DNA of 63,553 bases, counting the filler, from Sphaeroforma arctica JP610 (lineage: Eukaryota): assembly GCF_001186125.1 (NCBI RefSeq). It is 7 parts of 2 records of this genome, joined end to end, with 100 filler letters (N's around TTAATTAATTAA, not from the genome) between each part and the next. Parts side by side here need not be neighbours in the genome. Positions count along the whole stretch, not along the records: positions 1 to 16,123 come from NW_014040522.1; 6 more parts are not named here. One strand, given 5' to 3'. Both the position numbers and the translations under genes were made by a program. This document shows, in pieces, positions 1 through 62,172 of the stretch (position 1 is its first letter; each line of letters opens with the position of its first letter). The notes beneath the pieces are model-generated. The model searched no databases. It had not been told where the DNA came from and worked only from the letters and a program-made list of their open reading frames with translations.

Positions 1-570
1 ATATATTGGCTCGCATTGTATCATGCTTATCAATTTATTGAGCCATGGATCTTTTCTCCGTAATGGGCAACACAACGTGATGGTAGCTTTATGAATATGA
101 GTATAATTTGATAGCTGGGCAATTAACTGCCATGGTGGATTAGCCCACGCATTATGTTTGGAGAGGTCTATTTGAAAGTCGTCTCCCAAAGGATGATTTA
201 AAGTCCTGTAATTCGATAGTTGTGCATTATGATGTGCAGCAAACATATCTATGGTATGTGGCCCAAATATATTTTGAGCCAGTTCAAACCACCTGGGATT
301 ACACTTCCAGTCAGTGGCTAGTAACTCACGTACGGATTTGTTAAAGTTCGATACAAAGCGTGATAACATATCCGGTAAATGGTTATGTATTCTTGGCTTT
401 ATGTCAAAATGAAGCTTTGATATTGTATCATGCCAGCGACTCAGTAATCGTGAGTCGGGTTTCATCTCTTTCATATATTGAAGAGATTTCTGATCACACA
501 TCAGCGTAAATGCTGTTCCGTATAAGTAATCTCGGAAGTGTGTTAGAGCTGCCACTATGGCTAATAGCTC
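1..570 (-). CDS. Pol continuation of element A: RNase H C-terminus, then a Dam-like N6-adenine DNA methyltransferase domain (from ~312 to the window edge)
   Basis: Manual translation gives 190 codons with no stop: ELLAIVAALTHFRDYLYGTAFTLMCDQKSL..HNHLPDMLSRF..TDWKCNPRWFELAQNIFGPHTIDMFAAHHNAQLSNY..DFQIDLSKHNAWANPPWQLIAQLSNYTHIHKATITLCCPLRRKDPWLNKL. IDMFA is at 252..238 and NPPW at 141..130. Confidence 0.85.
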
Positions 571-1991
571 TTGTTAGCAGTTGGATAATTCAACTGTGAA
601 GCATTCATTGCTCGACTAAAGAATTGTATATATCTAGGTTTGATATCTATAACCTGATATAATATTCCTCCTAAGGCTAAGTCGGAGGTGTCCGTTGCTA
701 TCTCATACGGCACGCCATCGACCGGTCCTTGTACAACAAGGGCTTGTTGAACTGCGTGTTTGAGCGCTTTAAATGCGTCATCACATTCTTTATTCCACAA
801 GTCTCCTAGTTTGCCTTTATGACATCTTAAGTGTCCAAAAGGTTTAAGGTACTCAGCTAAATGTAATACTCCATTTGAAAAGAAGTTTACAAACCCACAC
901 ATACTGTTAACATCTCTTCCTGTAGTTGGTGTTTGCCAATCTAACAGGTGTTCTACCTTACCGGGGTCGATTTTAATACCTTCTCCAGATATACGATAGC
1001 CTAAGAGCTGTATTTCGCTCACGGCGAAGTGACGTTTCTTCACGTTAATCTTGTTGAGTCTCTGAAGGACTCGCCTGACTAATGCGGCATGTTCGCCTTT
1101 AGTCCTAGAAAAGACGACTATGTCATCTATATAGACTTGCACGTTAGGCATGTCTGTAAAAATTTCCTCCATTACTTGTTGGAAGAATGCTGGTAAAGAG
1201 TGTAACCCGAAAGGTGCACCTCTGAACCTGTATTGTTTACCTTTCCACGTAAAACTAAAGTATTTACGACTTGGTTCATATACTTGCATTTGATGGTATC
1301 CTTGTGTAAGGTCTAAAGTTGTAAATACTGTAGCACCTTCCATCCTTCGCAGTAGCTCGTTAATACGAGGTAAGTGAAAGCTATGAGTCGGCAATAATTT
1401 ATTTATCGGACTCATATCTAAACACACTCTGACTTTCTTAAATGATCCGTTAGAGTTATGTTGGTCTACGGCTAGCAGTGCCAAGTTAACTGGCGTCTGT
1501 TGATAGATAATTTCTATCACTCTATCTGCTAGCCATTTCTCAATTTGATCTTTTACCACAGCCTCCTGTCTCCAGGATACATAGTTCCTTGAGGGACACT
1601 TTAACTGTGTAAAGTCCACCTTGGGTATGTCAAGGCTGACATACCCGTCGTTAAAACGGAATTTTGCCCAATCTGTGATCTTTATCTTCTTGTTAACTAG
1701 AATCAGATCTATGATTTTGTTCGCAAAGTTAGGTATTAATGCCTTGACTGTGTCTGACGGGGGCTTATTTGGATTCAGACAGTTATCGTCTGACTGATCC
1801 TTTAATGGATCTATGTTATTTGGTAGACCAGTTACGGTTATACCTAGAGTGAATAAATCGCTCATTCCGACTACTATGTCGTACTTCTGTGACATCTCAA
1901 CTATCACAGCTTTGGCAGTGATACTTCTATCATCGGCCAGGGAGATTTTAACATATGTGGCCATGGTATCACACATAAAAAGTTTTATCAT
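561..1991 (-). pseudogene. Pol of element A: aspartic protease, reverse transcriptase and N-terminal RNase H, with a 1-nt frameshift near 571
   Basis: Protease-like CDTMA and DIVVGMSDL. RT motifs LDLTQGYHQ, PFGL and YIDD. Ty3-type RNase H ATDTSDLALGGILYQ..FFSR..NYPTANK. The expected ELLAIV continues in another frame from 570. Confidence 0.9.
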
Positions 1992-3032
1992 CTGTTAAAA
2001 TGAGGTGAGTTGTTTGTGTTCTCCTTTCGATATCTTTCATTAATGCAAAGCGATCAGATATACATGAAATTTCAGAACCAGGATCAATCAACGCAAGGAT
2101 TTTATTTCCATTGCAATATACAGGGATTATTACAAGCTCATCTAAAGAGTCGCTGTATTGTCTGTGTAACGATTGTAATCGGTAGTACCGTCAGTTCAAT
2201 TTACTATCGGGTCTGACGTTACACGATTTAGTGTGGTAGCCATTGGTCTTCTCACATTTATCACATTTTGTATGATAGTGTTTACAAGATTGAGCATGAT
2301 TTCCGTTCCAACAACCGTTAGGTGTTAACTGATACATGTTATAACCGTTAACTGATACATGTTATAACCACATTCCTCATCAGTACATTTCTTAACTTGC
2401 TTGTATGCAGATCCCTTGTGCTACACACTCACCTTCTTAACAGGGCGTGTAAATTGAGTAGATTCACGTGGACGTGTATGTTATGGTCTCTCGTATGAGG
2501 TCTACCTGGATACGTATCCTTGATCGGTCTGCCCCCGCGGTTTCTTAACAACCGCCTTCTCCTGTGAGGTCATTCGCTTCTTAAGAGCGGCTAACTGAGG
2601 TTCTCATTGATCAACTTACTTATGTGCGATGGCTGGTTTGATTCTGATTCGGGTCGGCTCTCTGAGCTTTCCTTCTCATCCTCTCTCTTAAGCGGGTTGT
2701 TTCCTTTATCCGTAATTGGAGTTAGATTCTTCTGAGTGTTCTCATCAGGATTAGTAGGGATCCTCTTAAGCTCTTTCTTCAGGGTACTTCTCTCTTAACG
2801 AAGTATCTTCACCCTTATCTGTTGTATTGTCCTGGTTATTAATACCAGTAGTAATGATTTCGGTTACGGACTGATTGTCCTCTTCTGCGGTCGCGTTAAA
2901 TGCGGCTGTAGCAGCGGCGTCTTTCTCCATCCTTTTCTACGCTTCTTAGAAGGAGTATTGTCTTTCTTGGTCACAATCTTAACTTATGACTGCTAGCTGG
3001 TCTCTTAAGGACTAGCTTGGACCAGAAAATTT

Positions 3033-3599
3033 TGTGGTAGTTATCTACCTTTACGTTCAAGTAGTCTAAGTAGTTAATACCTTTGCAAACTTTAAAATTT
3101 GGAAGATTTGGTCTAACAAGGCGATATTAAAGCCTCTGAATAAATAAACGCGCAGGTCTATCGTCTTGATGTCCTTAGTTATTGTCTTAACCAATAGCTT
3201 GCCACTTATCAAGAATTACCGACTTAGCTTTCATCAGACTGGCACATCTGGCTGGCTGATCGGAGGATCAACTAGGTAACGTTAATAGTCCCTAGAAACC
3301 TATATTCGGTTGAGCCATCTCGCTACCGAAGTATTCAGATATAAATAAAGTTGGAAAGTAAATATAGTTCTATTAATAGAACTAGACCAACTCTTATGTT
3401 TGGTATTTTACTGGGGCCTTTTAATGGCCTCGTCCAAATATCTGATATATAAAATAGTAAAGGTATTAATTAATAAAACCATTAAAAACGATTTAGGAAA
3501 CTTAAGTTCCTCGTGCTGTTAAGAGTACGTTTATAATTTACGTACTGCTTAAGAGTGTGTTTATAACATAGAGTCTAATGTGGAGGCCCGGCTATTACA
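3033..3599 (-). repeat. Possible 5' LTR of element A
   Basis: Imperfect inverted termini TGTGGTAG(3033)..CTATTACA(3599). On the minus strand it is followed within ~8 nt by TGGTCCAAG, a PBS-like start. No second LTR is in the window to confirm. Confidence 0.35.
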
Positions 3600-6365
3600 T
3601 CTCCACGAAAATTTTGTACCAAATTCAACTGATGTTTGGCAATTTCCAACAGGATTGAGAAGAAATTCTACCATTCCTGGATATTAATTGGCACCCGCAT
3701 TTTACATGCAGGTTTTGGACTTGCGGCAGCGTATGGTTATACCGTGTACAAGTACCAAATACCTCTTAACGAAAATATGGCACTGGGTTCAGCTGATGTT
3801 TGGCAATTCCTAACAGGATCAAGAAGATATTTTTAAATTCCTGGACGCTAATTGGTACCTGCATTTTACACTCATGGGTTGGGTCTGCGTTGCAGGACTG
3901 CGTGCGTCCCTCTACCGTGCGTATACATCAAAATACTCTCCACAAAAAATCCAGTAGCGAATCCAATGCCCTCACGACGAAGTTGTATAATTTGAAATCA
4001 GAACGATTTTCAATATTTATGTTTAGATTTCGCGGAACGAATGAGGAAGGAAAAGTAAAAGTAGCGCTCCATTCAGAACAGATGCCGTTAGAAAACCCGA
4101 ATCTGGAAAAATCACCCAATTAAGGAATGGTGCCGAAGGCAAATCTCAAACTGGAACTGGTATGACTTGGACCGCCAGGGACATCGCAGCAGAGGTTTGT
4201 GACAGGGCAAGCGCCGTATACATAAGTGGAACAAAGTCCTACGAGGTACGTCTCTCATACAGATACATTTCTATAATTCAAATTTTGTATCACCTCCCAC
4301 CCACGGCTAAGTTGTATATAAGTCGAAATCAGGAATATTGTCATTATCATGGTGAAACTCTCACAGGACCCACGAGGAAGAAAAATTCAAAAAATTCACC
4401 CCATTAAGGACTGGTGCAGTTGGAGAACCTAAAATTGGACGTAAAGACCTGGACCGCCAGGGACATCGTAGCACGGGATTTGCGATACGACAAGGACCGT
4501 GTAGATAAAAGGGACATAGTTCTACGAAACATATTCTCATACAGATACAACTCTAAACCCAAAATGTAAATCACTCACCCACCCACTCAGGATACAGACA
4601 ATTAGACGGTCGGCCAGACTAGAATATCGCAATAATCTTGTAAACAAATACTAGACTGTCCCATATGTGGTTCAGGCGTTCTCGAGGTACCTGTAGAAGG
4701 GTTTTGGGCGTGTTTGCAGAACAGCACGCCGCTCTACCATAGGGATAATATTATTTATTTCAAAAATGGCAAGTATGTATGATACAATGTATGAACATAT
4801 GGTATGGCTCTCATAGTCGCTGTAGTGGTTCAGGAAAGATTGATGGGAAGAAGTGGTCAGTAAATTCCCGTTCTACCATAGTATATCCATCAGGAAGACC
4901 TTTCAATATTTGTGTAAAATTGAAGCAAACCAATAAAGAAGGATATCTTGAAGTGGTTACATTTAAAAGGGTGATGCCGTTGTAAAACCTTAAACTGGCA
5001 GTAGCAAGACTTGGACCGCTAAAGATATCGCAGCAAGGGATTCGTGAATGGACAGCTATGTATAGATAAAAGGGACAAAGTCCTATGAAGCATATTTCTC
5101 ATACAGATAAAATTTTGAATTCAAATTTTAAATCACCACCCGCCAAAACTACAGCAATATAGCGCGCCGATTTACCGTGTATATACATTGAAAAACTCTC
5201 CACTAAAATGTGATAACAATTCCAAAACTAAGTTTGGAAGTAGCACCCTTTTAAGGACTTGTGCCGTTGGAAAATTCAAAACTAGAAGTAGTAAGATTTG
5301 TACCGCCAGGGACATCGCAGTCAGGGAATTGTGGTAGGACAAGCTTCGTATTGTTATGTGGAAGAAAACACCGTGAAGCATATTCCTTATACCGATACAA
5401 TTTGGAAACCGAAATTTTGATTTACCACCCGCTCACACTAAAGACAATTAGACAATTGGTTAGACTAGTTATCAGAATAGTAGTATAAATAAATACGATA
5501 GGCCCTTCACGCTAAAGACACTAACCCATACTACGGGTTCAGACGTTCGTGAGGGACTGTCCAAATTGGTTTGGGCACGTGTCGCCGAACAGCACGTCGC
5601 TATACTGTTTGCATGCGCAAAAATACTATCCACCATAATCTGATAGCCATTTCAACCGATGTTGGCAGTTTCCACCCGGATCCAGATGATAATATCAAGT
5701 TATACTTTTGCTGAACATTGGTTGACACCGGCATTATACACTCAAGCTTTTATCTCAATCATGTGGTATTGACATCTCAGAACGCATAGAATATATGACT
5801 AGCACATCGGCAGAAAGCCTGTTCAGTGCAACCCTGAGTATGAATGTACGTTTTCGTCTAGTCTATCTTGCGATAATAATATGTGGGACTGTCGTTCAAA
5901 AAATCTTGACTTGTCGGAGGGGCATGGACATCAAATTTTATTTATGTGCAAAGGATCAAGGAAGAATTTGTATTTGAACAGGTATATATGTATTATGCAA
6001 ATCTCATTGTCAACGGGCGAGCGAAGCGAGCGACAGTTTAGGGTTTTAGATGTTGTGGACCATTCTAGTGATGTGTGAAATAGAGACTGAAAGTAACAGC
6101 CTCGAAGGTGGTTCTGATAGTGAGCATAAAAAATGTGGACTATTTTGAGCGGGCGAGCGAAGCGAGCAAACGGTATACGGGGTGTGAATGTGAATATTTG
6201 CAATAAGATCAGCTCGTGAATTAAGCCATACGCAACAGAGTCGCACACGGGCGGGCAAGCGACATGGTATGTGACGAGAATCTGTGACGTTTTACATAAT
6301 GAGAATTAGTCAGGATGTGTACATGGTTCTATAACCCTTTTTACGGGCGAGCAAAGCGAGCGGGT
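3600..6365. repeat. Complex degenerate higher-order repeat of unknown class, possibly TE-derived
   Basis: ACCGCCAGGGACATCG-type block at ~4170, 4452, 5014 and 5302. GATGT(T)TGGCA(A/G)TT block at ~3630, 3795 and 5658. GAACAGCACG block at ~4718 and 5587. CGGGCGAGC(G/A)AAGCGAGC at ~6014, 6150 and 6344. Confidence 0.6.
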
Positions 6366-18593: not shown

Positions 18594-21500
18594 CTACCTC
18601 TTGTATTTATCCTGCATATGCGCTGCTACGAACTCGCGCAACTGGTCCGTAAATACTTGCTTCGCCGCCAGATAGGTTTGGCGGTCTTCCGGCGGCACGT
18701 TTTCCTCCACCCACCACTGCTTAGGCCAATCCTGGTCACTGATGTTACACACATGCCAGCCCGCGCTTTTCAGTAGGTAGTCTTTGGCACAGGTTTTGCC
18801 CAGCAGAGTGCTGTACTCATACACTGCCACGGCACTTGTGAGATCGTCAACGTAATGCGATGTGCGCCCGTTCACCTCAAAGCCGATTTTCAACGCCGGT
18901 AGAGCTATGTCTAAGTCAACACCTGCTTGGGCGTCTAAAAACTCGACCACGACCTCCAAGGCACTATTGTTCTTGAGGCGAGTGTGCGACTGTTTCGGCA
19001 CCTCATTGTCGGTATCCGGGGCGTTGGTTGGGTCAGGGAAGTTCTGTACCATCTGCCGCACTATATCCGTCACACTCTGCTGGAAGTTGCCCATAGTAGC
19101 ATCGTCAGAGATACGCGAGAACCCCATGCGACACTCATCCAGCACCCCATGAAGGGCCCGATGTGTGCTCAGAAGATCATCGTACACGTTCCGCTGTGTG
19201 TGCTTGATGATTTGGAACAAGGTGTGGGTCCGAAGTTTGTTTTCTAACGGTAGCTTGCGCGGCATCAACTGCGCTATATGCGGTGCCACTTCTGCGAGCG
19301 TCTGCGCAAACACCTTCTGCCAAGCACGCACACGCTTCTCCTCTCTGAGCCCCTTTTCCTCCTCACCTGTAGGCCTATCTACTCGTACCTCCACCCTACC
19401 ACCCCCATTCCCTACACCCCCATACTCGTCCCTATCCTTACTAACCTCATCCACAGTCACGTGCTCAGACGTGGGCACACTCAGCAGCGCCAGACTGTGC
19501 AACACCGACAGAATCGGCGCTATCCACCTTGCGTCTGTGGCTGTGTGGCTGGGTGGGGTAGCATGAGACCCCACCGATTGAGACAGAGAGTATATTTTAT
19601 GTGTGTGTGCTCGTTGGGGTGCACCCGTTAATTGTATGTAGTACGACACAGTGGGCAGCACTGCGTCTTGCAAGGTGCGTGTGAGCGCACAGGCGCCCCT
19701 GTCCACGTGTGTGTTGAGGTGCGTATGTCCGGGTGCAGACGAGGCAGGGCTGTCGTATTGGGCCAGCGTGAACTGGTCAATCCTCAGCATAGACACCGCT
19801 CTAAGCATATCGTCCAAATAGTACACCGAGAATTCGTGGTTGGGTAGGGGGAGTGTCCGCGGTCCCATAGCCACAGGTGCGGGTACAGGGGGCACGTCAT
19901 TGAGCCACCCGTGCATTCCTACCAAGTTATTTTTAGCCGCGTATCTGTGGGCGTGCGAGGGTTGGTACAGAATGTTCTTGCTATCGTACAGTGTCTCACT
20001 CACCAACTCGCCTATGGCGTTGAATAGTCCCGTGTGCGAGATACGCATGGCGTGGTACGTTCGCATGATACTGATCACATCCACCATGCTAGTGATAGCG
20101 TCTGTGGCTGCCTTGGGGTTTGGCCGAACCCCGCGTGTGTCTGTGTGCACACACTCCCACAGACCCTGTTCCCGATTGCGTGCTGTTCCTGTACGCACCA
20201 GACCTTCAAGAACATCGCCCAGCGTGCGCAGGATGTATCTGTACTCCTCACGGTAGTTATAGCCACTGCGTGCAAATGCTGTCATCGTCAGCAGCGCTGA
20301 GTCCCTATCTAGCAAGTCTACTATGCCTTCAAACGCCTCGCCTTCGTGGTGATCGTCATCTGCCTCAGCACCTCCAGCAATTCCTCTGTGATAGTCCACC
20401 CCCGGATCTGGCTTCGTGGCATTCGCTCGCTCCCTTCGCTCACTATCATCCATGCTACCATCCAATGAACTGGCAGTATGCTTCGGCGTAGGTACAGATA
20501 CACCCACCAAAGGATCCAGACAGCATGTCATGTAGGTATCATTCCGTCCGTTTCCGTACACAATACGGTTGATCCGCACCGCACACTCTCGCAGCAACGT
20601 ATCACACGGGTGCGCAGCCGTACTGGCACACGTCGTCACCGCCGCTAGCTCATACAGCGACATCCGGTGCCTGAGCCCCACGGCGGTGTCGACCAGAGTC
20701 TCCCACACTTTACCTACCAGCTTCTCGGTCGAGTCATTCATGCGGCCCTTGGTCGATGTGAGCAGCACAATGCACGAGTGCACCAGATCGTTGCTGTACA
20801 TGTCGCGTGGATTGATGGCCTGGTGTTTGTATTGCTCTACCACCGCCTTTCTGTAGGGGCTGTACTTCTCCGTCGTCAGCAGCCGCATGGTCAACGGTAC
20901 TGTGTCGGTGCCTCCATTCCTCACAGCCCTGCGACTACCCGGGTGTCGCACCATGGGCATGGTCTGTTGTTGGACGTTGTACCTCGCCAACCCTATCTCT
21001 AGCTGCTTGTTGCGGCTGGCATCGACAAACCCGGGTGCATATGATCCCAACTGTTTGGCCGTTTCTCGGGCTGTGTAGAGCGACAGCCTCTTCGCAATAC
21101 CATACCCGTCATCCCAGCTCCCTTGCAGCCACCATTCATTCGGCTGCTGTCCTTGCTGATAGTACGCTGTAGGTGTGTGCGTGTTGGTAGGTGTATATGT
21201 AGGTGTGTGTGTGTTGGTAGACGTATCTGTACGTGTGTGTGTGTTGGTAGGTGTATATGTAGGTGTGTGTGTACTGGTAGGCGTATCTGTAGAGGTGTGT
21301 GTGTTGGTAGGTGTATCTGTAGTCAATTGATCCTCCCTTCCCTGCCTGCCTGCGGGTGTTTCAGTATGTACAGCCACTTGCGCATGTGAGGAAGGGTCCT
21401 GCATGCGTACTGCAGTGTGCATATCCGCTTGCCAGTGCTTCTCGTGAGTCTCCCCATGCATACACGTGCTCACCTCTGTATCATCCGTAGCCACAGGTAG

Positions 21501-22409
21501 CTCCGTCTCCAACTCCGCCAATTGTCTATCCAACGCCTCTCGCTGGCGCTCCAGCACCGCACGCGCATCGTCTCTGGCGTCTAAGTACCGAACATTCTGT
21601 TCGCGGAACATGTCCTGGCTGATATCGCACCAGTGCACCCTCACCACAGGCTCCTGCAGGATACGCCTCTCCTTCCACGCCTTCATACGCTCATACTTCC
21701 ACCGTTGCCACCGCACACGTTCCTTCTTGTCGATCTGGATACTGTACCAGTCATTCACCCCGCTCTTCAGCCTGCGTGTGCGGTCGTAGTTGGGCGGGGT
21801 CAGCTTGTTGTGTGGTTTGTGTGCCTTTCCAAACGGATTGATCAGTGTCCCGCTCTGTTGTAACTTCTCCTTCTCCGTCCACTCTATCTTGAGCTGCCGT
21901 GCCTTGAGGCTCAGTTTCTCTGCATCTACTATGTACGGTACATCTGCTTGCCCAGTCCTTTTACGCTGTGGATTCGTGTGTGGGGTTCGCGTTGTCGTCT
22001 CTGTGTTGTGCCGTGTTGAGGTGTGTGCGTGTGTGTGATCCTTTGTTGGCTTTGATTGATGTATTGCTGATGTGTGTGTGCCGGTGTGTACTGCATCTGA
22101 TTCATACTGTGATTGTGTGTGCACTTGTTTCTGTTCCCAATTTGGTTGACGTGTGGCTGTATTATATGAGCTATTAAGTATTTTATCTGTCACATGCTGT
22201 GGTGTTGTGTGCGTATGTTTCAGAGTGTCATGTCTTGTACGCTGTGCTGATGTGTGTGCATGTCGCAGCGGTGCAAATGCGCTCGATTGTGATGGACAGT
22301 GTGCAATTGTAAGTGGTGGGCTGCAACTATTCGGGTACGTATAGCTTCCAGCTGTTTTCATGCACCCTTTTATCATGGAGCATCTCCTCAAAGATATATA
22401 ACGTCGCAT
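18594..22409 (-). CDS. Intronless 1271-aa protein with a C-terminal RAP domain (FASTK-like), probably a mitochondrial RNA-binding/processing factor
   Basis: Long ORF. The C-terminal VVEFLDAQAGVDLDIALPALKIGFEVNGRTSHY..KDYLLKSAGWHVCNISDQDW fits the RAP pattern (D-I-A..iEvnGp.Hy..k.rlL...Gw.v..i...eW). The N-terminus is Arg/Ser-rich and acid-poor. A TPTNTH repeat lies at ~21170-21320. Confidence 0.8.
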   Translation of the reverse strand: MRRYISLRRCSMIKGCMKTAGSYTYPNSCSPPLTIAHCPSQSSAFAPLRHAHTSAQRTRHDTLKHTHTTPQHVTDKILNSSYNTATRQPNWEQKQVHTQSQYESDAVHTGTHTSAIHQSKPTKDHTHAHTSTRHNTETTTRTPHTNPQRKRTGQADVPYIVDAEKLSLKARQLKIEWTEKEKLQQSGTLINPFGKAHKPHNKLTPPNYDRTRRLKSGVNDWYSIQIDKKERVRWQRWKYERMKAWKERRILQEPVVRVHWCDISQDMFREQNVRYLDARDDARAVLERQREALDRQLAELETELPVATDDTEVSTCMHGETHEKHWQADMHTAVRMQDPSSHAQVAVHTETPAGRQGREDQLTTDTPTNTHTSTDTPTSTHTPTYTPTNTHTRTDTSTNTHTPTYTPTNTHTPTAYYQQGQQPNEWWLQGSWDDGYGIAKRLSLYTARETAKQLGSYAPGFVDASRNKQLEIGLARYNVQQQTMPMVRHPGSRRAVRNGGTDTVPLTMRLLTTEKYSPYRKAVVEQYKHQAINPRDMYSNDLVHSCIVLLTSTKGRMNDSTEKLVGKVWETLVDTAVGLRHRMSLYELAAVTTCASTAAHPCDTLLRECAVRINRIVYGNGRNDTYMTCCLDPLVGVSVPTPKHTASSLDGSMDDSERRERANATKPDPGVDYHRGIAGGAEADDDHHEGEAFEGIVDLLDRDSALLTMTAFARSGYNYREEYRYILRTLGDVLEGLVRTGTARNREQGLWECVHTDTRGVRPNPKAATDAITSMVDVISIMRTYHAMRISHTGLFNAIGELVSETLYDSKNILYQPSHAHRYAAKNNLVGMHGWLNDVPPVPAPVAMGPRTLPLPNHEFSVYYLDDMLRAVSMLRIDQFTLAQYDSPASSAPGHTHLNTHVDRGACALTRTLQDAVLPTVSYYIQLTGAPQRAHTHKIYSLSQSVGSHATPPSHTATDARWIAPILSVLHSLALLSVPTSEHVTVDEVSKDRDEYGGVGNGGGRVEVRVDRPTGEEEKGLREEKRVRAWQKVFAQTLAEVAPHIAQLMPRKLPLENKLRTHTLFQIIKHTQRNVYDDLLSTHRALHGVLDECRMGFSRISDDATMGNFQQSVTDIVRQMVQNFPDPTNAPDTDNEVPKQSHTRLKNNSALEVVVEFLDAQAGVDLDIALPALKIGFEVNGRTSHYVDDLTSAVAVYEYSTLLGKTCAKDYLLKSAGWHVCNISDQDWPKQWWVEENVPPEDRQTYLAAKQVFTDQLREFVAAHMQDKYKR

Positions 22410-23143
22410 TTTGGCCGTGTATACTATAACTAATAATCCTACTGCCGATTCACCTTAATCCCACGAAGACGCTGATGTCGACGAGAACGGTTTGAATGCG
22501 CTTATCCACATGTACCTATAGCCAGAATAACTAGGTATGAGAAGGTAAACACCAGTTACAGCTATATGCATATCAAATCGAGTAGTTAAATAGCACCACC
22601 GTTATTAGGCTAAGTTTTAATGATCACTGACGCGATATAACACACAGCCACTGTTGAGATGATGTATCGGCTTCTCTGACGTCCGCCTGCTCATTACCGC
22701 GGCATACACTAGTTGCACAATTATGTGTGGTTCGACAATGAAAACACACTACTATGTACACGTATACATATGCATATTTATATTGATGCGTGTGTATGTG
22801 TATGTATGTGTATATATACTACTACATATCTATGTATATACGAATACCACTAAAACAAAATACATTGATAGCATACAAATGATATAGAGTGTAATTGCAC
22901 GAAAGTATGAGCCATGGGCCCGTGGTGAGTCGGTGACTGCGGGTGATCTGAACATGTCATCACTTTTGTGTGCATTGCGCGGGAAAGTACCGAACGTTCT
23001 TTCATAAGTTCGCGTGAAAAGAAAAGTAAAATAAACAAAAACGCAAACGCATATTTTATATATACACACACGGGATAGGCAACCAAAAAGCGTAAGTTGC
23101 GCTGGTATACTCACACACACGTCACACGTAAGTGTATATAGGG
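22410..23143. promoter_or_regulatory. Short divergent intergenic region, putative bidirectional promoter
   Basis: Head-to-head ATGs at 22409 (-) and 23144 (+), about 730 bp apart. No specific elements identified. Confidence 0.4.
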
Positions 23144-30566: not shown

Positions 30567-31454
30567 ATGGATGCGCTTGCCGTCAGAAAAGCCCATTGGC
30601 AGAAGATATGGTCTATCCCTAACACACCCTGGACCATCAAAGGGTATTCGCGCAGTGCATACCGTACCGGTTTTATCATCCCGGAATTGAATGTGATGCT
30701 AGACGCAGGTCCGCAACACTTCAGCACGCCGCACACTGTACTGGTCACACACGCACACATTGATCACATTGCCAACCTGCCACTCACTCTTATAGGCGAT
30801 GCGGAAAGTGGACTAGTAACGGATGTGTATGGACCGCAAGCAGCGGAGAAATACATTAGGAACTATATACATGCCATGTTTGAGGCGAACGCGATGCAAG
30901 AGATTGATGAGATTGATTGGTATAGATACAAGGGTGTTAGTGCACGCGATGTGATTCGCATGCCCATCAAGAAGACTCTTTTAGAGATGCAGGTGTTTGA
31001 ATGCGACCACGCAGTACCTACAGTGAGTTATGGGCTGAGCGAAGTGAAGCAGAAGCTCAAGCAGGAATATCTTGGTAAAGATGGCAAGGTTATAGCTCAG
31101 CTTAGAAAGGACGGTGTCAGCATCACTCAGGAGGTGGTGGTGAAACGGCTTGCGTATGTCTGTGATACGAGTATACGTGTATTCGAGATGAATCCGGGTA
31201 TTCTCGAATACCCAGTGATATTCATTGAGTGCACATTCTTGTTCGACGATGAGCTGCAGAACGCCATGGATACTCAGCACATACACTGGCAGCAGTTGAA
31301 GCAGTATGTAGAGACGCATAGTCATATAGAGTTTATGCTGTTCCACTTCTCACTGAGGTACAAGGATAGTGAGATCAACAGCTTCTTCCGCGAGATCACA
31401 GCGAATGGGTTGAGCAATCTCCGGTGGTGGACTAATCAGCCCGATGCGCAATAG
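30567..31454 (+). CDS. Intronless short-form (TM-type) tRNase Z / metallo-beta-lactamase fold nuclease
   Basis: KGYSRSA (EGxSxxG-like), MLDAG, THAHIDH (HxHxDH), DHAVP, KL-motif arm KQKLKQEYLGKDGKVIAQLRKDG, AYVCDT, IECTF, HIH and LFHFSLRY. Confidence 0.88.
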   Translation: MDALAVRKAHWQKIWSIPNTPWTIKGYSRSAYRTGFIIPELNVMLDAGPQHFSTPHTVLVTHAHIDHIANLPLTLIGDAESGLVTDVYGPQAAEKYIRNYIHAMFEANAMQEIDEIDWYRYKGVSARDVIRMPIKKTLLEMQVFECDHAVPTVSYGLSEVKQKLKQEYLGKDGKVIAQLRKDGVSITQEVVVKRLAYVCDTSIRVFEMNPGILEYPVIFIECTFLFDDELQNAMDTQHIHWQQLKQYVETHSHIEFMLFHFSLRYKDSEINSFFREITANGLSNLRWWTNQPDAQ

Positions 31455-57120: not shown

Positions 57121-60100
57121 CAAATTGCAAAGTGCTGAGCGACTCACCAAAAGATGTCATACGAGTATGAGCTGAATGAATTAGGAACTATGATACAAAA
57201 CAGATTGCGCAACTCGTGCATAGCCAGCACAGAGGACAGTAGACATCTCACATATACTAAATAACAAACAATGAGCGCAAACACTCTGAAGTAAACAACG
57301 ACAAGTATCACAACCAGACGCGTCCCATACAAGCACTATGAATGAATGATAACTCAGCTCAGAATTGCATTTCCAATGAGCAAAAAAAAACTAGCTATAT
57401 CAACACTTGGACAAAGGAAGAATATAACTGCAAACAGAACGTCAAAATGTCACAAATATACAAATACTTNNNNNNNNNNNNNNNNNNNNNNNNNNNNNNN
57501 NNNNNNNNNNNNNTTAATTAATTAANNNNNNNNNNNNNNNNNNNNNNNNNNNNNNNNNNNNNNNNNNNNGTCGACTAGTTTCCTATCTATTTCCGTCTCG
57601 TCCAGGGCATTCCACTGGTCATACCACACCGCGAGGACATGTATCTACACCGTGGCAAGCGTATAGTTGGTATCCAGCCTTGGCCATACACGCTCGTCGC
57701 CCACCTCAGGGGCGCCCAACAGCTATTTATCGTCCCTAACGCCTTTTTGTAAGACAAAGGGCCAATACATGTGCAACTTCTCTCTAAGTATCGATATACA
57801 AGGCACTCATGTACTTTGGTCAACGAGACAAGGTAGATGCAATCATTAAAGCAGATAAATTGCCTGATAGAAGTGATGGTCACTTATCAGATATGACACA
57901 AAACGTGTTGTTCTCTACGGAAGCATCTATAAGAGCAGCAGCCAAAGTACAGGCAGACCGTATGTACAGAGAGCGTAAAAGATACAACTCAAACACGGCC
58001 ACTCATAGCCAAACACAGAACGCCACTATTGCTGCACCCAAGCGTCACAAACCAGGCAGTGGCACACCAAGACAGACCCATCCAACGAGACAGCCCCAAG
58101 AGAAGAAAAGGGCGCGCGAAATACGCGCATGTTCTTATTGTAAGGTGTCAGCAGCCCAATATCGATTTTGCCAATGCCTTACGAAGACATTAAGTCAGAA
58201 CAAGAAGGCTGATGAGCATGCCAAGAACGATGTGCAAGTAGCAAGACTATCCACTACCTCACATGACCTCAGGTAAAGTAGAAAAGATAACAAGTAGCGA
58301 TGAGTCCCGAAACAACTGACGGGTGGAAGGATTGACCTCGCTGGCAGGCTAAATGTAAATACAGATAAAGAACCGTTGTTGATAAATGCGGACGATATAA
58401 ATTATCAATCATTATCATAGCTTCCCGCACCACGAGACGAAATATTACACATCGAGGTACAAATTAATGACAATACATACAGGGCACTTGTATACTAAGG
58501 TGCACAACGACCGTGTATGGACAACAGTATAGTAGCTGAAATATATCTCTCAGACAGAGCGCAACCGGGCTACATACAATTCGCACAAACAGATGCGAGA
58601 ATACAAATAACAGGGTCAACCCAAGTTTGTGACATCAACTATGGAGGAAGGAAAGCCTCTCTGTTTTTCGAATTGTTGGACCTACCAGACAAGAAGAAAC
58701 AAATACTTCTAGGTATGGACATACTTCCATACATAGGCATATACATATCAGGATCAATAAATTCACCTACACCAACAGATGCAAAATGAAAATCACTACT
58801 CACACCACACGAGGAAGACCCAGAGCACGAACAAGAAGGTTGTAGATATTCGCTTGCAGACCTCCTACAGACTAAAGCGAATATACTTCCTGACGTACAT
58901 TGCAACCTACCAGGCACTAGAGTCACTGTATCTGAAAATGAGATCAATGTCAGACAAATGAGGCACGCCAAGGTAAATTTTGGACCACATAAGTATATTC
59001 CATAAACGTTTTTAAAACATAAATGTGAAGAGGTGGCTTTCATACAGATGGTCATAGTTACAAACGAACGACACCAACAGCCGTGAACTTACCGTTGTTA
59101 TCTACTGGGGAACATGACCAAGCAGGTCTCCTCAAGAAAGTGAGAATTTTTTTTGGACTTACGGAGATCAATTATCAATTCGAGCAAGATAAGTTCGTGC
59201 TACCAAAAACAAAGAAAGTGATACATAACCTAGAAAAGCCAAAATTATTCATATTCTCGTGGAGAGGAGCGCAATAGTCGTTCAAGTCAGCGCCGTTCGG
59301 CTTACACTCACTCACAGCACAATTCCACAGAGTCATGGTCATAAACATCAAAAGAGTGCAAGTGTATGTAGATGACATAGTCATTGCAAGTCTCACAGAT
59401 GAAGAATATCGCAAGACAGTTCGTGGAGTAACCAAACGGTTGAACGGAGCGAACATCTGACTCAATCCCAACAAATATGTCTTCGCGGTCAAGTGGTCAA
59501 CATTCTAGGTGTGAAAGTAGCTACACAAGGATTTAGAGCTGATCCTCAAAAACTAAATCGAATGATGGGCTGGCCACTACCCAGAACAAAAAGAGATCTG
59601 CACGGAGCGGTGGGACTCGCAAACAATATGCGTGACAAAATCCTCAACTTTGCCCACACAACTAAACACTTCCGCAACCTAATGAAGGCAAAATGAACCA
59701 AAATATATCTATGTTACAGACACCGGAACTCAAAGAAATAGGAAGAACTCAAAGAAGCCATCACGTGTTCGGCGACACTAGCATACCCAGTCGATGGGTA
59801 CCGTTTTAGATCATGAACAAGGTCATCGATGGAGTCAGGAGAGATATTCTCTACTTCTCTAAAGACCCGAATCCAGTCCGACAACGCTATGGTACAAACA
59901 CAACTGAGCTGTTAGCACTGGTATACAATCTGGGTCATTTCTTTGAAAATATCAAAGAAGGAGACATAACACTATGGACAGATCATAAGGCGCTCACGCA
60001 AATGAACAACAAACAGAAGTTACACTCAATACTAGCCAAATGAATAGCTAAAACATTCGACCACCATTTTTTTATCATACATGTCCCAGGCAAGGACAAT

Positions 60101-60242
60101 TAGATGGCAGATATGTTGTCGCGTCTACACGAAGACACATTTAATACCAAAAAGACGCGAACAAAACAACTCACAGCAGCCAAGAGTACATCACATTGGG
60201 AACAAAAATGCCTATAACCAGATCAGCGATAGACTGCATGTA

Positions 60243-60632
60243 ATGTTACACCCCATATTCTATAAAAAAAAGCTGAAAGACAGTTTGGGAAGTTCACAAT
60301 AGATCTGTTGGCATCGGCACACAATGCATATACAGATAAATACTACACACACAAAACCAGAATGCGCTCCTATATACGTGAGCATAGGAAGTAAATACAA
60401 AACTCACCATGGGAACTCATACCCGATGTCCCTGACAAAGTCATTGAAGAGGCAACTCGCATCACGATATGTATTCCATACTACCCCAATGCAACAAACG
60501 TGGTTTCCAAAATTCCTGTCTTTATTAGAAGAAGATCCGATGCTAGTGGAAGACAAAAACAACACGCTCCTCAAAGAAGGCACGAAAACACGTGGCAAGA
60601 CCCTATGGGGTGTCACATTGGTAGCAAAGATT
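60243..60632 (+). pseudogene. Frameshifted Dam-like N6-adenine DNA methyltransferase domain in pol of element B
   Basis: Across frames: MLHPIFYKK / ERQFGKFTIDLLASAHNAYTDKYYT (ID at 60299) / QNALLYT* / NSPWELIPDVPDKVIEEATRITICIPYYPNAT (NSPW at 60401-60412) / TWFPKFLSLLEEDP. Colinear with the element A domain. Confidence 0.75.
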
Positions 60633-62172
60633 CCATACTTTGATACAACGCGGGAACAACCTGCCCTACACGTCTCAGCATTACAAACAGTTAGCCCTGG
60701 AGATGCATCAAATGTGACTAACTACGAGACACGTATCAACATCATCGAGCAATACCAAAACTTGGGACATTACACACCTGCAAAATGGTAGATAAATTGC
60801 AAGCAGATGGACACGATTGGCCACAACTCCAGCAATATGTTGTACATAGATACATTGAAGGATGCTACCGTGTCTCAAAAATAAGATTCACAAAAAGGGA
60901 GCTTATCCCTTACAGTCAATCACAGCCGCATTACCAGGCGACAAAATCCAAGTGGACACTATTGACCCACTACTGGACTAAAACAGAGGACACACATATG
61001 TGCCAGTATGGCTAGATGTGCACTCATCATATGTCATACTCAGACCAATGATGGACAAATCAGCAGCAACTGTAGCACGAACGCTGGTACCAATAGTGTG
61101 TGAACATGTGTTCTGCCACTTATCATACAAACAGATGTAAACTTCGNNNNNNNNNNNNNNNNNNNNNNNNNNNNNNNNNNNNNNNNNNNNTTAATTAATT
61201 AANNNNNNNNNNNNNNNNNNNNNNNNNNNNNNNNNNNNNNNNNNNNCTACAAGCAAACATGCGCGCAGTATGTGACCGAAAATACCAAAAGAAGTATGTA
61301 CACTTCCAGGAACGGGACATTTCATGGTCCGTTGCCAAGGTGGAATGAACAAGATGACAGCACCACATGGCGGACCATATTGAATGGTATACAGGGAGGG
61401 CATCGGGTATTTTGTCTTAACCTTGATGGGGATTATGAAGCGCAAATATCCTAACTCGGTCAGTGATGAGCTAATTGGACTCGTAAAAAAGGCCAATACT
61501 CCGCATGAATTTAATTCCAACAGCCAAGTACAACCATCCGAGAAGACTCAGTTCTCCTCGATACTCGACCATAGGCCATTTATCCAAGGTGACGGCTTGC
61601 AGGAGTACCTACTGCAATGGACAGATAGAGAGCGTACCTGGACACACGAATCAGACATCGCATATTTTGATGTTCTTACACTATACCGTCAACGCACTCG
61701 ACGCAAACGAAGGCAATCAACACCGAAGAAATCAACAGCAACGAGCACTGATGAAAGATCGGCGAGGAACAGAAAGCGCACGAGACGGGGGGACTTGACC
61801 AAGTCACTTTAATACCGAGGGACACTCCCACTCTTCTTGCCTTGAAGCAGGCTCCGCCCACACGCCAGAGGGATAAGGACTAAAGACTTGATTGTAGAGT
61901 CACTGGTGATATGCTTTTTCCCAAGCCAAGTTGATATCAACCGAGAGCAACGATCCAAACTGAATTTGATGAGCACGGCTGAGAACCCCCGTCACAGTAT
62001 ATTTATTCAATATGGTAATATGTAAGAATAGATAATAGTGGCAGGTTTTTCATCTTAAGCCCCTAAGGGACAAGTTTTTCCTTTTGCAAAAACACCAATC
62101 TTTAGATAGTCTAGAACTGTAAGATATCGCTTTCTACTTCTACGCCGGCTAAGTAGCATAAAGTTGGGAGGC

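Follow-up and report, generated by a model that had tools for sequence, protein, structure and literature searches.

Introduction

In the parts of Muszewska et al. (2013; PMC3783388) that deal with their layout, DIRS elements are described as carrying a Dam domain (PF05869) directly after RNase H and inverted terminal repeats, and as having neither a protease nor a DDE integrase. DAM is also mentioned in DIRS polyproteins in an excerpt from PMC6338049, and in the relevant section of Iyer et al. (2016; PMC4738411) related DIRS1 domains were placed in the PCIF1 clade and considered likely inactive. An ichthyosporean DAM-LTR lineage was described in May 2026 from Pirum gemmata and Abeoforma whisleri as well as Sphaeroforma arctica (Fernandez-Moreno et al., bioRxiv 10.64898/2026.05.21.726589). 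According to this preprint, DAM-LTR insertions in S. arctica and A. whisleri showed more 6mA and more expression than other LTRs, the lineage is said to lack chromodomains, and no rise in 6mA resulted when DAMs from DIRS, DAM-LTR elements, and adintoviruses were expressed in E. coli. Methylation of the hybrid with maintenance by AMT1, as a mimicry of 6mA, was already proposed there. The architecture, the lineage and the idea of 6mA mimicry are thus already known.

The window analyzed here is the whole stretch of 63,553 nucleotides (filler included) from S. arctica JP610, and an element on its minus strand (1..3599) was compared with these systems. Like the ichthyosporean DAM-LTR lineage, it contains a Ty3/Gypsy RT, a Dam domain (PF05869) inside Pol and a preserved NPP motif. 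Both its RT and its Dam domain grouped with A. whisleri proteins, as expected of that lineage, and its two closest relatives were without a chromodomain, as is the lineage according to the preprint. No difference from the lineage as presented in the main text of the preprint was found; the window copy is inactivated. Judged from these sequence features, the element likely belongs to the described lineage. Its value as a sequence find is small, since DAM-LTR elements are already in the preprint and the copy is dead.

Organization of the Gypsy Element

The element showed the domain order LTR-gag-PR-RT-RH-Dam on the minus strand. A likely 5′ LTR of about 270 bp (3331..3599), which begins with TG and whose inner end is approximate, was delimited by contig departures. 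At 3599, 48, 42, and 46 contigs from runs X1, X5, and X14, respectively, were found to depart from the window sequence, their flanks being mutually unlike (agreement 0.35-0.40), and contig depth past this position dropped to single-contig level. This is the picture of the end of a dispersed repeat. A PBS-like sequence, recognized by position and sequence just inside the LTR (3315..3328, minus strand), presumably resembles the 3′ end of initiator tRNA-Met; no tRNA gene was found in the whole 63,553-nt stretch. By-eye reading of the three-frame translation revealed a decayed gag region with many stops (2200..3060, minus strand), which includes a zinc-knuckle-like C-X2-C-X6-H-X3-C at about 2265-2221.

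The N-terminal part of an aspartic protease (1981..2142, minus strand; ALIDPG) showed 50% identity to amino acids 20-73 of P0003, a region that corresponds to Asp_protease_2 in Pfam. A 477-aa ORF (561..1994, minus strand) was shown by Pfam to comprise the protease tail, the RT (YIDD; about 1559-960) and the N-terminal half of RNase H (RVT_1, E 1.9e-22; RT_RNaseH_2, E 3e-16). Its best PDB matches were 4ol8, which we take to be the Ty3 RT/RNase H chain, and the Ty3-G Gag-Pol 7q5b (E about 1e-40), and it was 61-63% identical to P0003/P0002. The next ORF on the same strand (573..1) is open at position 1, the edge of the stretch. It starts with the C-terminal half of a Ty3-type RNase H (ELLA..CDQKSL..DMLSR), followed by a linker of 15 aa (313..573; Pfam RT_RNaseH at aa 1-51, E 1.9e-11), with a 2-codon deletion near 397 relative to P0002 and P0003, and it continues into the Dam-type domain. 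The aspartic protease and the Ty3-type RNase H that the initial annotation had reported were thus both recovered, the former as the remnant at 2142-1981.

The element is inserted into a region of degenerate dispersed repeats that adjoins the LTR (3596-5700). Within this region, 3596-3700 matches 3760-3864 at 76%, and more repeated motifs were noticed by eye.

Inactivation of the Window Copy and Repetitiveness of the Family

The initial annotation had rested on a stop-free minus-strand frame at 570..1. Translation showed this frame to be 190 aa long and indeed stop-free, but the decay upstream of it (two frameshifts, deletions, and stops) had been missed. A one-base frameshift near 570-573 separates the RT ORF (1994..561) from the RNase H-Dam frame, and a second one near 1980 lies between the protease part and the RT ORF. 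In addition, the RT ORF has a 4-codon deletion near 1050 compared to intact relatives, in-frame deletions and stops were found further upstream, and gag contains stops. With these frameshifts, deletions, and stops the copy is unable to make Pol, and it is a dead pseudogene.

The family was shown to be highly repeated, as 28,387 contigs of run X1 matched a 4.2-kb stretch; the summed contig depth does not amount to a copy number. Of these assembled sequences, 46 contigs of run X1 ran over the edge of the stretch, and RNase H and Dam were bridged by contigs (pieces 239-397 and 158-379).

Closest Relatives and Predicted Order Beyond Dam

Two proteins among 46 candidates, P0002 and P0003, were the closest found, with 68% and 65% identity, respectively, to the window copy in the Dam domain. 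Each consists of one ORF of about 1400 aa that shows the Pfam order RT-RH-Dam-rve and contains HHCC and DDE integrase motifs. P0003 also has a protease, and both have the 15-aa RNase H-Dam linker in common with the window copy. No chromodomain was found in either at E up to 0.1. Among 44 scanned relatives, which were top or long matches from 150 listed, 15 carried Dam together with rve and none matched Phage_integrase. Besides, the 20 best relatives after P0002 all had a Ty3-type RNase H or rve. In the window element a DDE integrase therefore likely follows Dam, as predicted from the order in these intact relatives. In P0003, an apparently intact 1400-aa Pol, NPPW is replaced by CPPW although the domain is otherwise conserved, which makes it a natural variant of the catalytic site.

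Weak chromodomain matches (E 1e-3 to 0.08, below the Pfam cut-off) were seen in P0161, P0015, and P0172, which are members of the Dam/RT clade or their cluster-mates. The lineage of the preprint, in contrast, is said to be free of chromodomains; the clade may extend to other hosts. No match was obtained when proteins of comparable length were sought. Metagenome scanning yielded 80 loci, nearly all of which were 21-39% identical; the loci examined were mostly DIRS-like and included no close family member. In seven DIRS-like loci (L002, L003, L009, L014, L019, L024, and L066) the RT-RH-Dam ORF is overlapped over its full length by an ORF of >1000 codons in a different frame, and L014 and L024 showed a tyrosine-recombinase match.

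Phylogenetic Placement

The initial annotation had proposed that a Gypsy lineage, and not a DIRS element, carries the methyltransferase domain, and had suggested RT and methyltransferase trees. The RT tree comprised 64 rows, with the Ty3 rows labeled by their own Pfam domains and the DIRS side anchored by six metagenome loci that had a recombinase-family Pfam match (6 of 16 candidate ORFs scanned). In it, the window RT was found on the Ty3 side (support 100/100), where it belonged to a clade (99/95) of 11 Dam-bearing rows, one of them an A. whisleri protein. In the Dam tree (59 rows), which is unrooted and was sampled by similarity to the window element, both Dam copies of the window fell into a 16-row LTR clade (99/96) with three A. 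whisleri proteins. Both trees thus place the element with the Dam-bearing LTR clade, and its nearest named relatives are from Abeoforma. AU tests rejected a placement of the window RT, together with its two relatives, inside one or the other DIRS subgroup (p-AU 2e-7 and 2e-74); the groups for these tests were picked after the RT tree had been seen. A looser AU test, joining all DIRS and the window element against other Ty3, was left unrejected (p 0.197) and is badly posed because it only re-attaches one long branch.

The Pfam matches to RNase H and Dam in one frame and the Ty3-side RT support the proposed Gypsy LTR lineage in which RNase H is followed by a Dam-type methyltransferase domain. 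As an alternative, a tyrosine-recombinase element of the DIRS type, or a DIRS fragment nested by chance in a Gypsy copy, could be suspected because DIRS elements likewise have Dam behind RNase H, because the sequence read ends at position 1 inside Dam, and because the AU test that moves the long DIRS branch beside the element was unrejected. However, a protease, an LTR-like end and a Ty3-type RT/RNase H are all present, and nesting in either DIRS subgroup was rejected. Its closest relatives have a DDE integrase, unlike DIRS. The in-frame RNase H-Dam fusion, again with the 15-aa linker, occurs in two independent relatives that continue to the integrase, and the bridging contigs also argue against a chimera. 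A DIRS or chimeric origin is thus largely refuted, and we regard it as extremely improbable.

Motifs and Constraint of the Dam-Type Domain

The N-terminal ~104 aa of a putative Dam-type (PF05869) N6-adenine methyltransferase domain were identified at 1..312 on the minus strand by Pfam, PHROG, motifs, alignment, and the fold of a relative. The domain is cut at the window edge and is about 35 aa short compared to P0002. Pfam Dam matched aa 75-150 (E 8e-6) with 26.1 bits, which is just below the cut-off of 28.1 bits, on a domain truncated by the edge, and PHROG 111 ("DNA methyltransferase") matched with E 3e-4. The SAM-binding motif and the NPP-aromatic catalytic motif that had been read in the initial annotation are both present. 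They were located as a motif I-like IDMFA (252-238) and a motif IV NPPW (141-130), downstream of DWKC (312-301), all on the minus strand. A pattern with both motifs had only two occurrences across all six reading frames of the window, one here and the other in a second, decayed element. The initial annotation had left N4-cytosine as an alternative specificity; the NPPW motif and best matches annotated as adenine enzymes give no support to it.

NPP[W/F] was found in 14 of the 15 Dam-clade members that include the motif region, in agreement with the expectation that the motif is conserved among other copies, and 15 of 16 members had D-x-[F/M]-A. The RTs of the Dam-bearing clade differ by as much as about 1 change per site. 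Among contigs of the same family, the NPPW codons showed no variant (40 of 47 variant rows). P0002 and P0003 were 66% identical in Dam and 61% in RT, compared to 24% in the linker between Dam and integrase. Variants segregating among the family contigs were synonymous in 10 of 17 cases vs. 20% expected (p 6e-4), and changes private to the window copy in 31-393 in 2 of 11, as under neutral decay; the two shares differ at p 0.054. This count covers 28 of 40 rows, those at ≥5% in run X1, out of 47 in total, and the test is rough, as contigs rather than reads were used and adjacent changes were taken singly. From these sequence comparisons, the Dam domain of the family looks constrained.

These data bear on the possibility that Dam is a non-catalytic module of Pol, either nucleic-acid-binding or structural, and that 6mA is laid by the host AMT1 since the copies are transcribed. 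The negative heterologous assay, the view of DIRS domains as likely inactive in the relevant section of Iyer et al. (PMC4738411), and the CPPW of P0003 with the remaining domain conserved are in line with such a role. The retention of NPP[W/F] and D-x-[F/M]-A across RTs that far apart argues against it, as a module for binding only would not obviously require both motifs. We regard a non-catalytic Dam as quite unlikely.

Predicted Fold and Possible Substrate

The complete Dam domain of P0002 (149 aa) was modeled with a pLDDT of 93.8. Its best matches in a viral library of predicted structures were phage DNA N6-adenine methyltransferases (E 7e-9, TM 0.74). Among solved folds, PCIF1/CAPAM, a cap-specific adenosine RNA methyltransferase, ranked first both in Foldseek (E 7e-5, TM 0.65) and in VIA (Z 10.2, rmsd 3.2, 138 aligned). 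The next were rRNA adenine methyltransferases with Z about 8; T4 Dam showed Z 7.9, rmsd 3.1, and 108 aligned. Together with the Pfam match to Dam, these structural matches to PCIF1 and phage methyltransferases bear out the methyltransferase fold that had been anticipated. PDB sequence searches with the Dam part gave no significant match, and a profile found PCIF1 only at E 0.6-0.7, so that PCIF1 may be merely the nearest solved fold. According to the model, the phage DNA N6-adenine methyltransferases (PF05869, PHROG 111) and PCIF1/CAPAM appear to have the same compact fold as the retrotransposon domain, with D-x-F-A and NPP-aromatic motifs. They are stand-alone enzymes, 12-23% identical to the modeled domain, whereas the retrotransposon Dam is embedded in a polyprotein.

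The alignment with the 478-aa RT/RNase H chain 4ol8 extended as far as its residue 476, where the D-x-x-S-R motif lies, and in the Dam-bearing clade Dam starts 15-94 residues past this motif. Since the match ends there and Dam begins after it, the usual cut may leave Dam on the side of the integrase. Its size of 149 aa suggests that a separate target-recognition domain is absent.

The fold also raises the possibility that Dam methylates RNA in a PCIF1-like manner, at cap-adjacent or internal adenines of the genomic RNA or on the RNA strand of the hybrid, and thereby aids stability, translation, or packaging. PCIF1/CAPAM as the top solved fold in both structure searches, with rRNA adenine methyltransferases next, is consistent with this, as is the placement of DIRS domains in the PCIF1 clade in the section of Iyer et al. 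(PMC4738411) on these domains, and action on RNA would account for the negative DNA assay in E. coli. On the other side, phage DNA N6-adenine methyltransferases outscore the viral PCIF1-like proteins (TM 0.69-0.76 vs. about 0.65), and DNA copies of DAM-LTR elements are enriched for 6mA. Methylation of RNA seems to us unlikely, though not strongly so. The same low probability is given to Dam being a tethered writer, free of a target domain, that acts on the RNA or RNA:DNA hybrid of the element in the particle, PCIF1-like and not a dsDNA methylase. If true, action on RNA or hybrids would be a new use of this fold, and the element would encode a writer that acts on a replication intermediate of a retroelement.

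Proposed Role of the Dam Domain

In the explanation that we prefer, the copy in the window is a dead member of a highly repeated Ty3/Gypsy family with Dam after RNase H, likely before a DDE integrase, and intact copies likely mark their own reverse-transcription product with 6mA. As a whole we consider it fairly probable; the part on the identity of the element is close to certain, and the part on the mechanism is tentative, falling slightly short of an even chance.

In the proposed mechanism, Dam would be a bare 149-aa catalytic core without a target-recognition domain, and such a core would be expected to act in cis. As its start lies just past the end of the mature Ty3-type RT, Dam may stay attached to the integrase half. 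Dam would be tethered inside the virus-like particle, beside the RNA:DNA hybrid or the new cDNA, where the Dam of intact copies would add N6-methyladenine to their own reverse-transcription product. After integration, the host AMT1 would maintain 6mA, as in the model of the preprint, and the mark might help new insertions to remain in transcription-permissive chromatin. The negative assay in E. coli, the likely inactivity of related DIRS1 domains according to Iyer et al. (PMC4738411), PCIF1 as the nearest solved fold, and the CPPW of P0003 count against methylation of DNA. Besides, the enrichment of 6mA on DAM-LTR copies is correlative and might be a consequence of transcription. If Dam does methylate the cDNA of its own element, a transposon would forge the "active" chromatin mark of its host. 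The intact-looking P0002 (NPPW) and P0003 (natural CPPW) form a convenient pair for substrate testing.

Second DAM-LTR Element and Other Features of the Window

On the plus strand, tblastn, Pfam, and the Dam tree revealed a second DAM-LTR element (57788..61137), which is far more decayed and represents another subfamily. It comprises a gag-like ORF (57788-58276), RT (59074-59490), RNase H and Dam (59810-60660), and an integrase core (60853-61137), with Pfam matches to RT_RNaseH (6e-10), Dam (2.3e-6), and rve (6e-4). This element was 27-34% identical to P0002/P0003, and its Dam was sister to P0014 in the Dam tree. Since it is of a different subfamily, a minimum of two old DAM-LTR subfamilies are present in the host.

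Two genes of the window have entries in NCBI, UniRef, and EukProt. An intronless RNase Z-like gene (PF12706) was found at 30567-31454 on the plus strand. Its best relatives were at most 60% identical and included metagenomic sequences and one uncultured virus (1.6-Mb contig); the gene was possibly acquired by lateral transfer from a giant virus. On the minus strand, 18594-22454 contains a long uninterrupted ORF, the product of which is 1271 aa from the first Met and is present in NCBI, UniRef, and EukProt.
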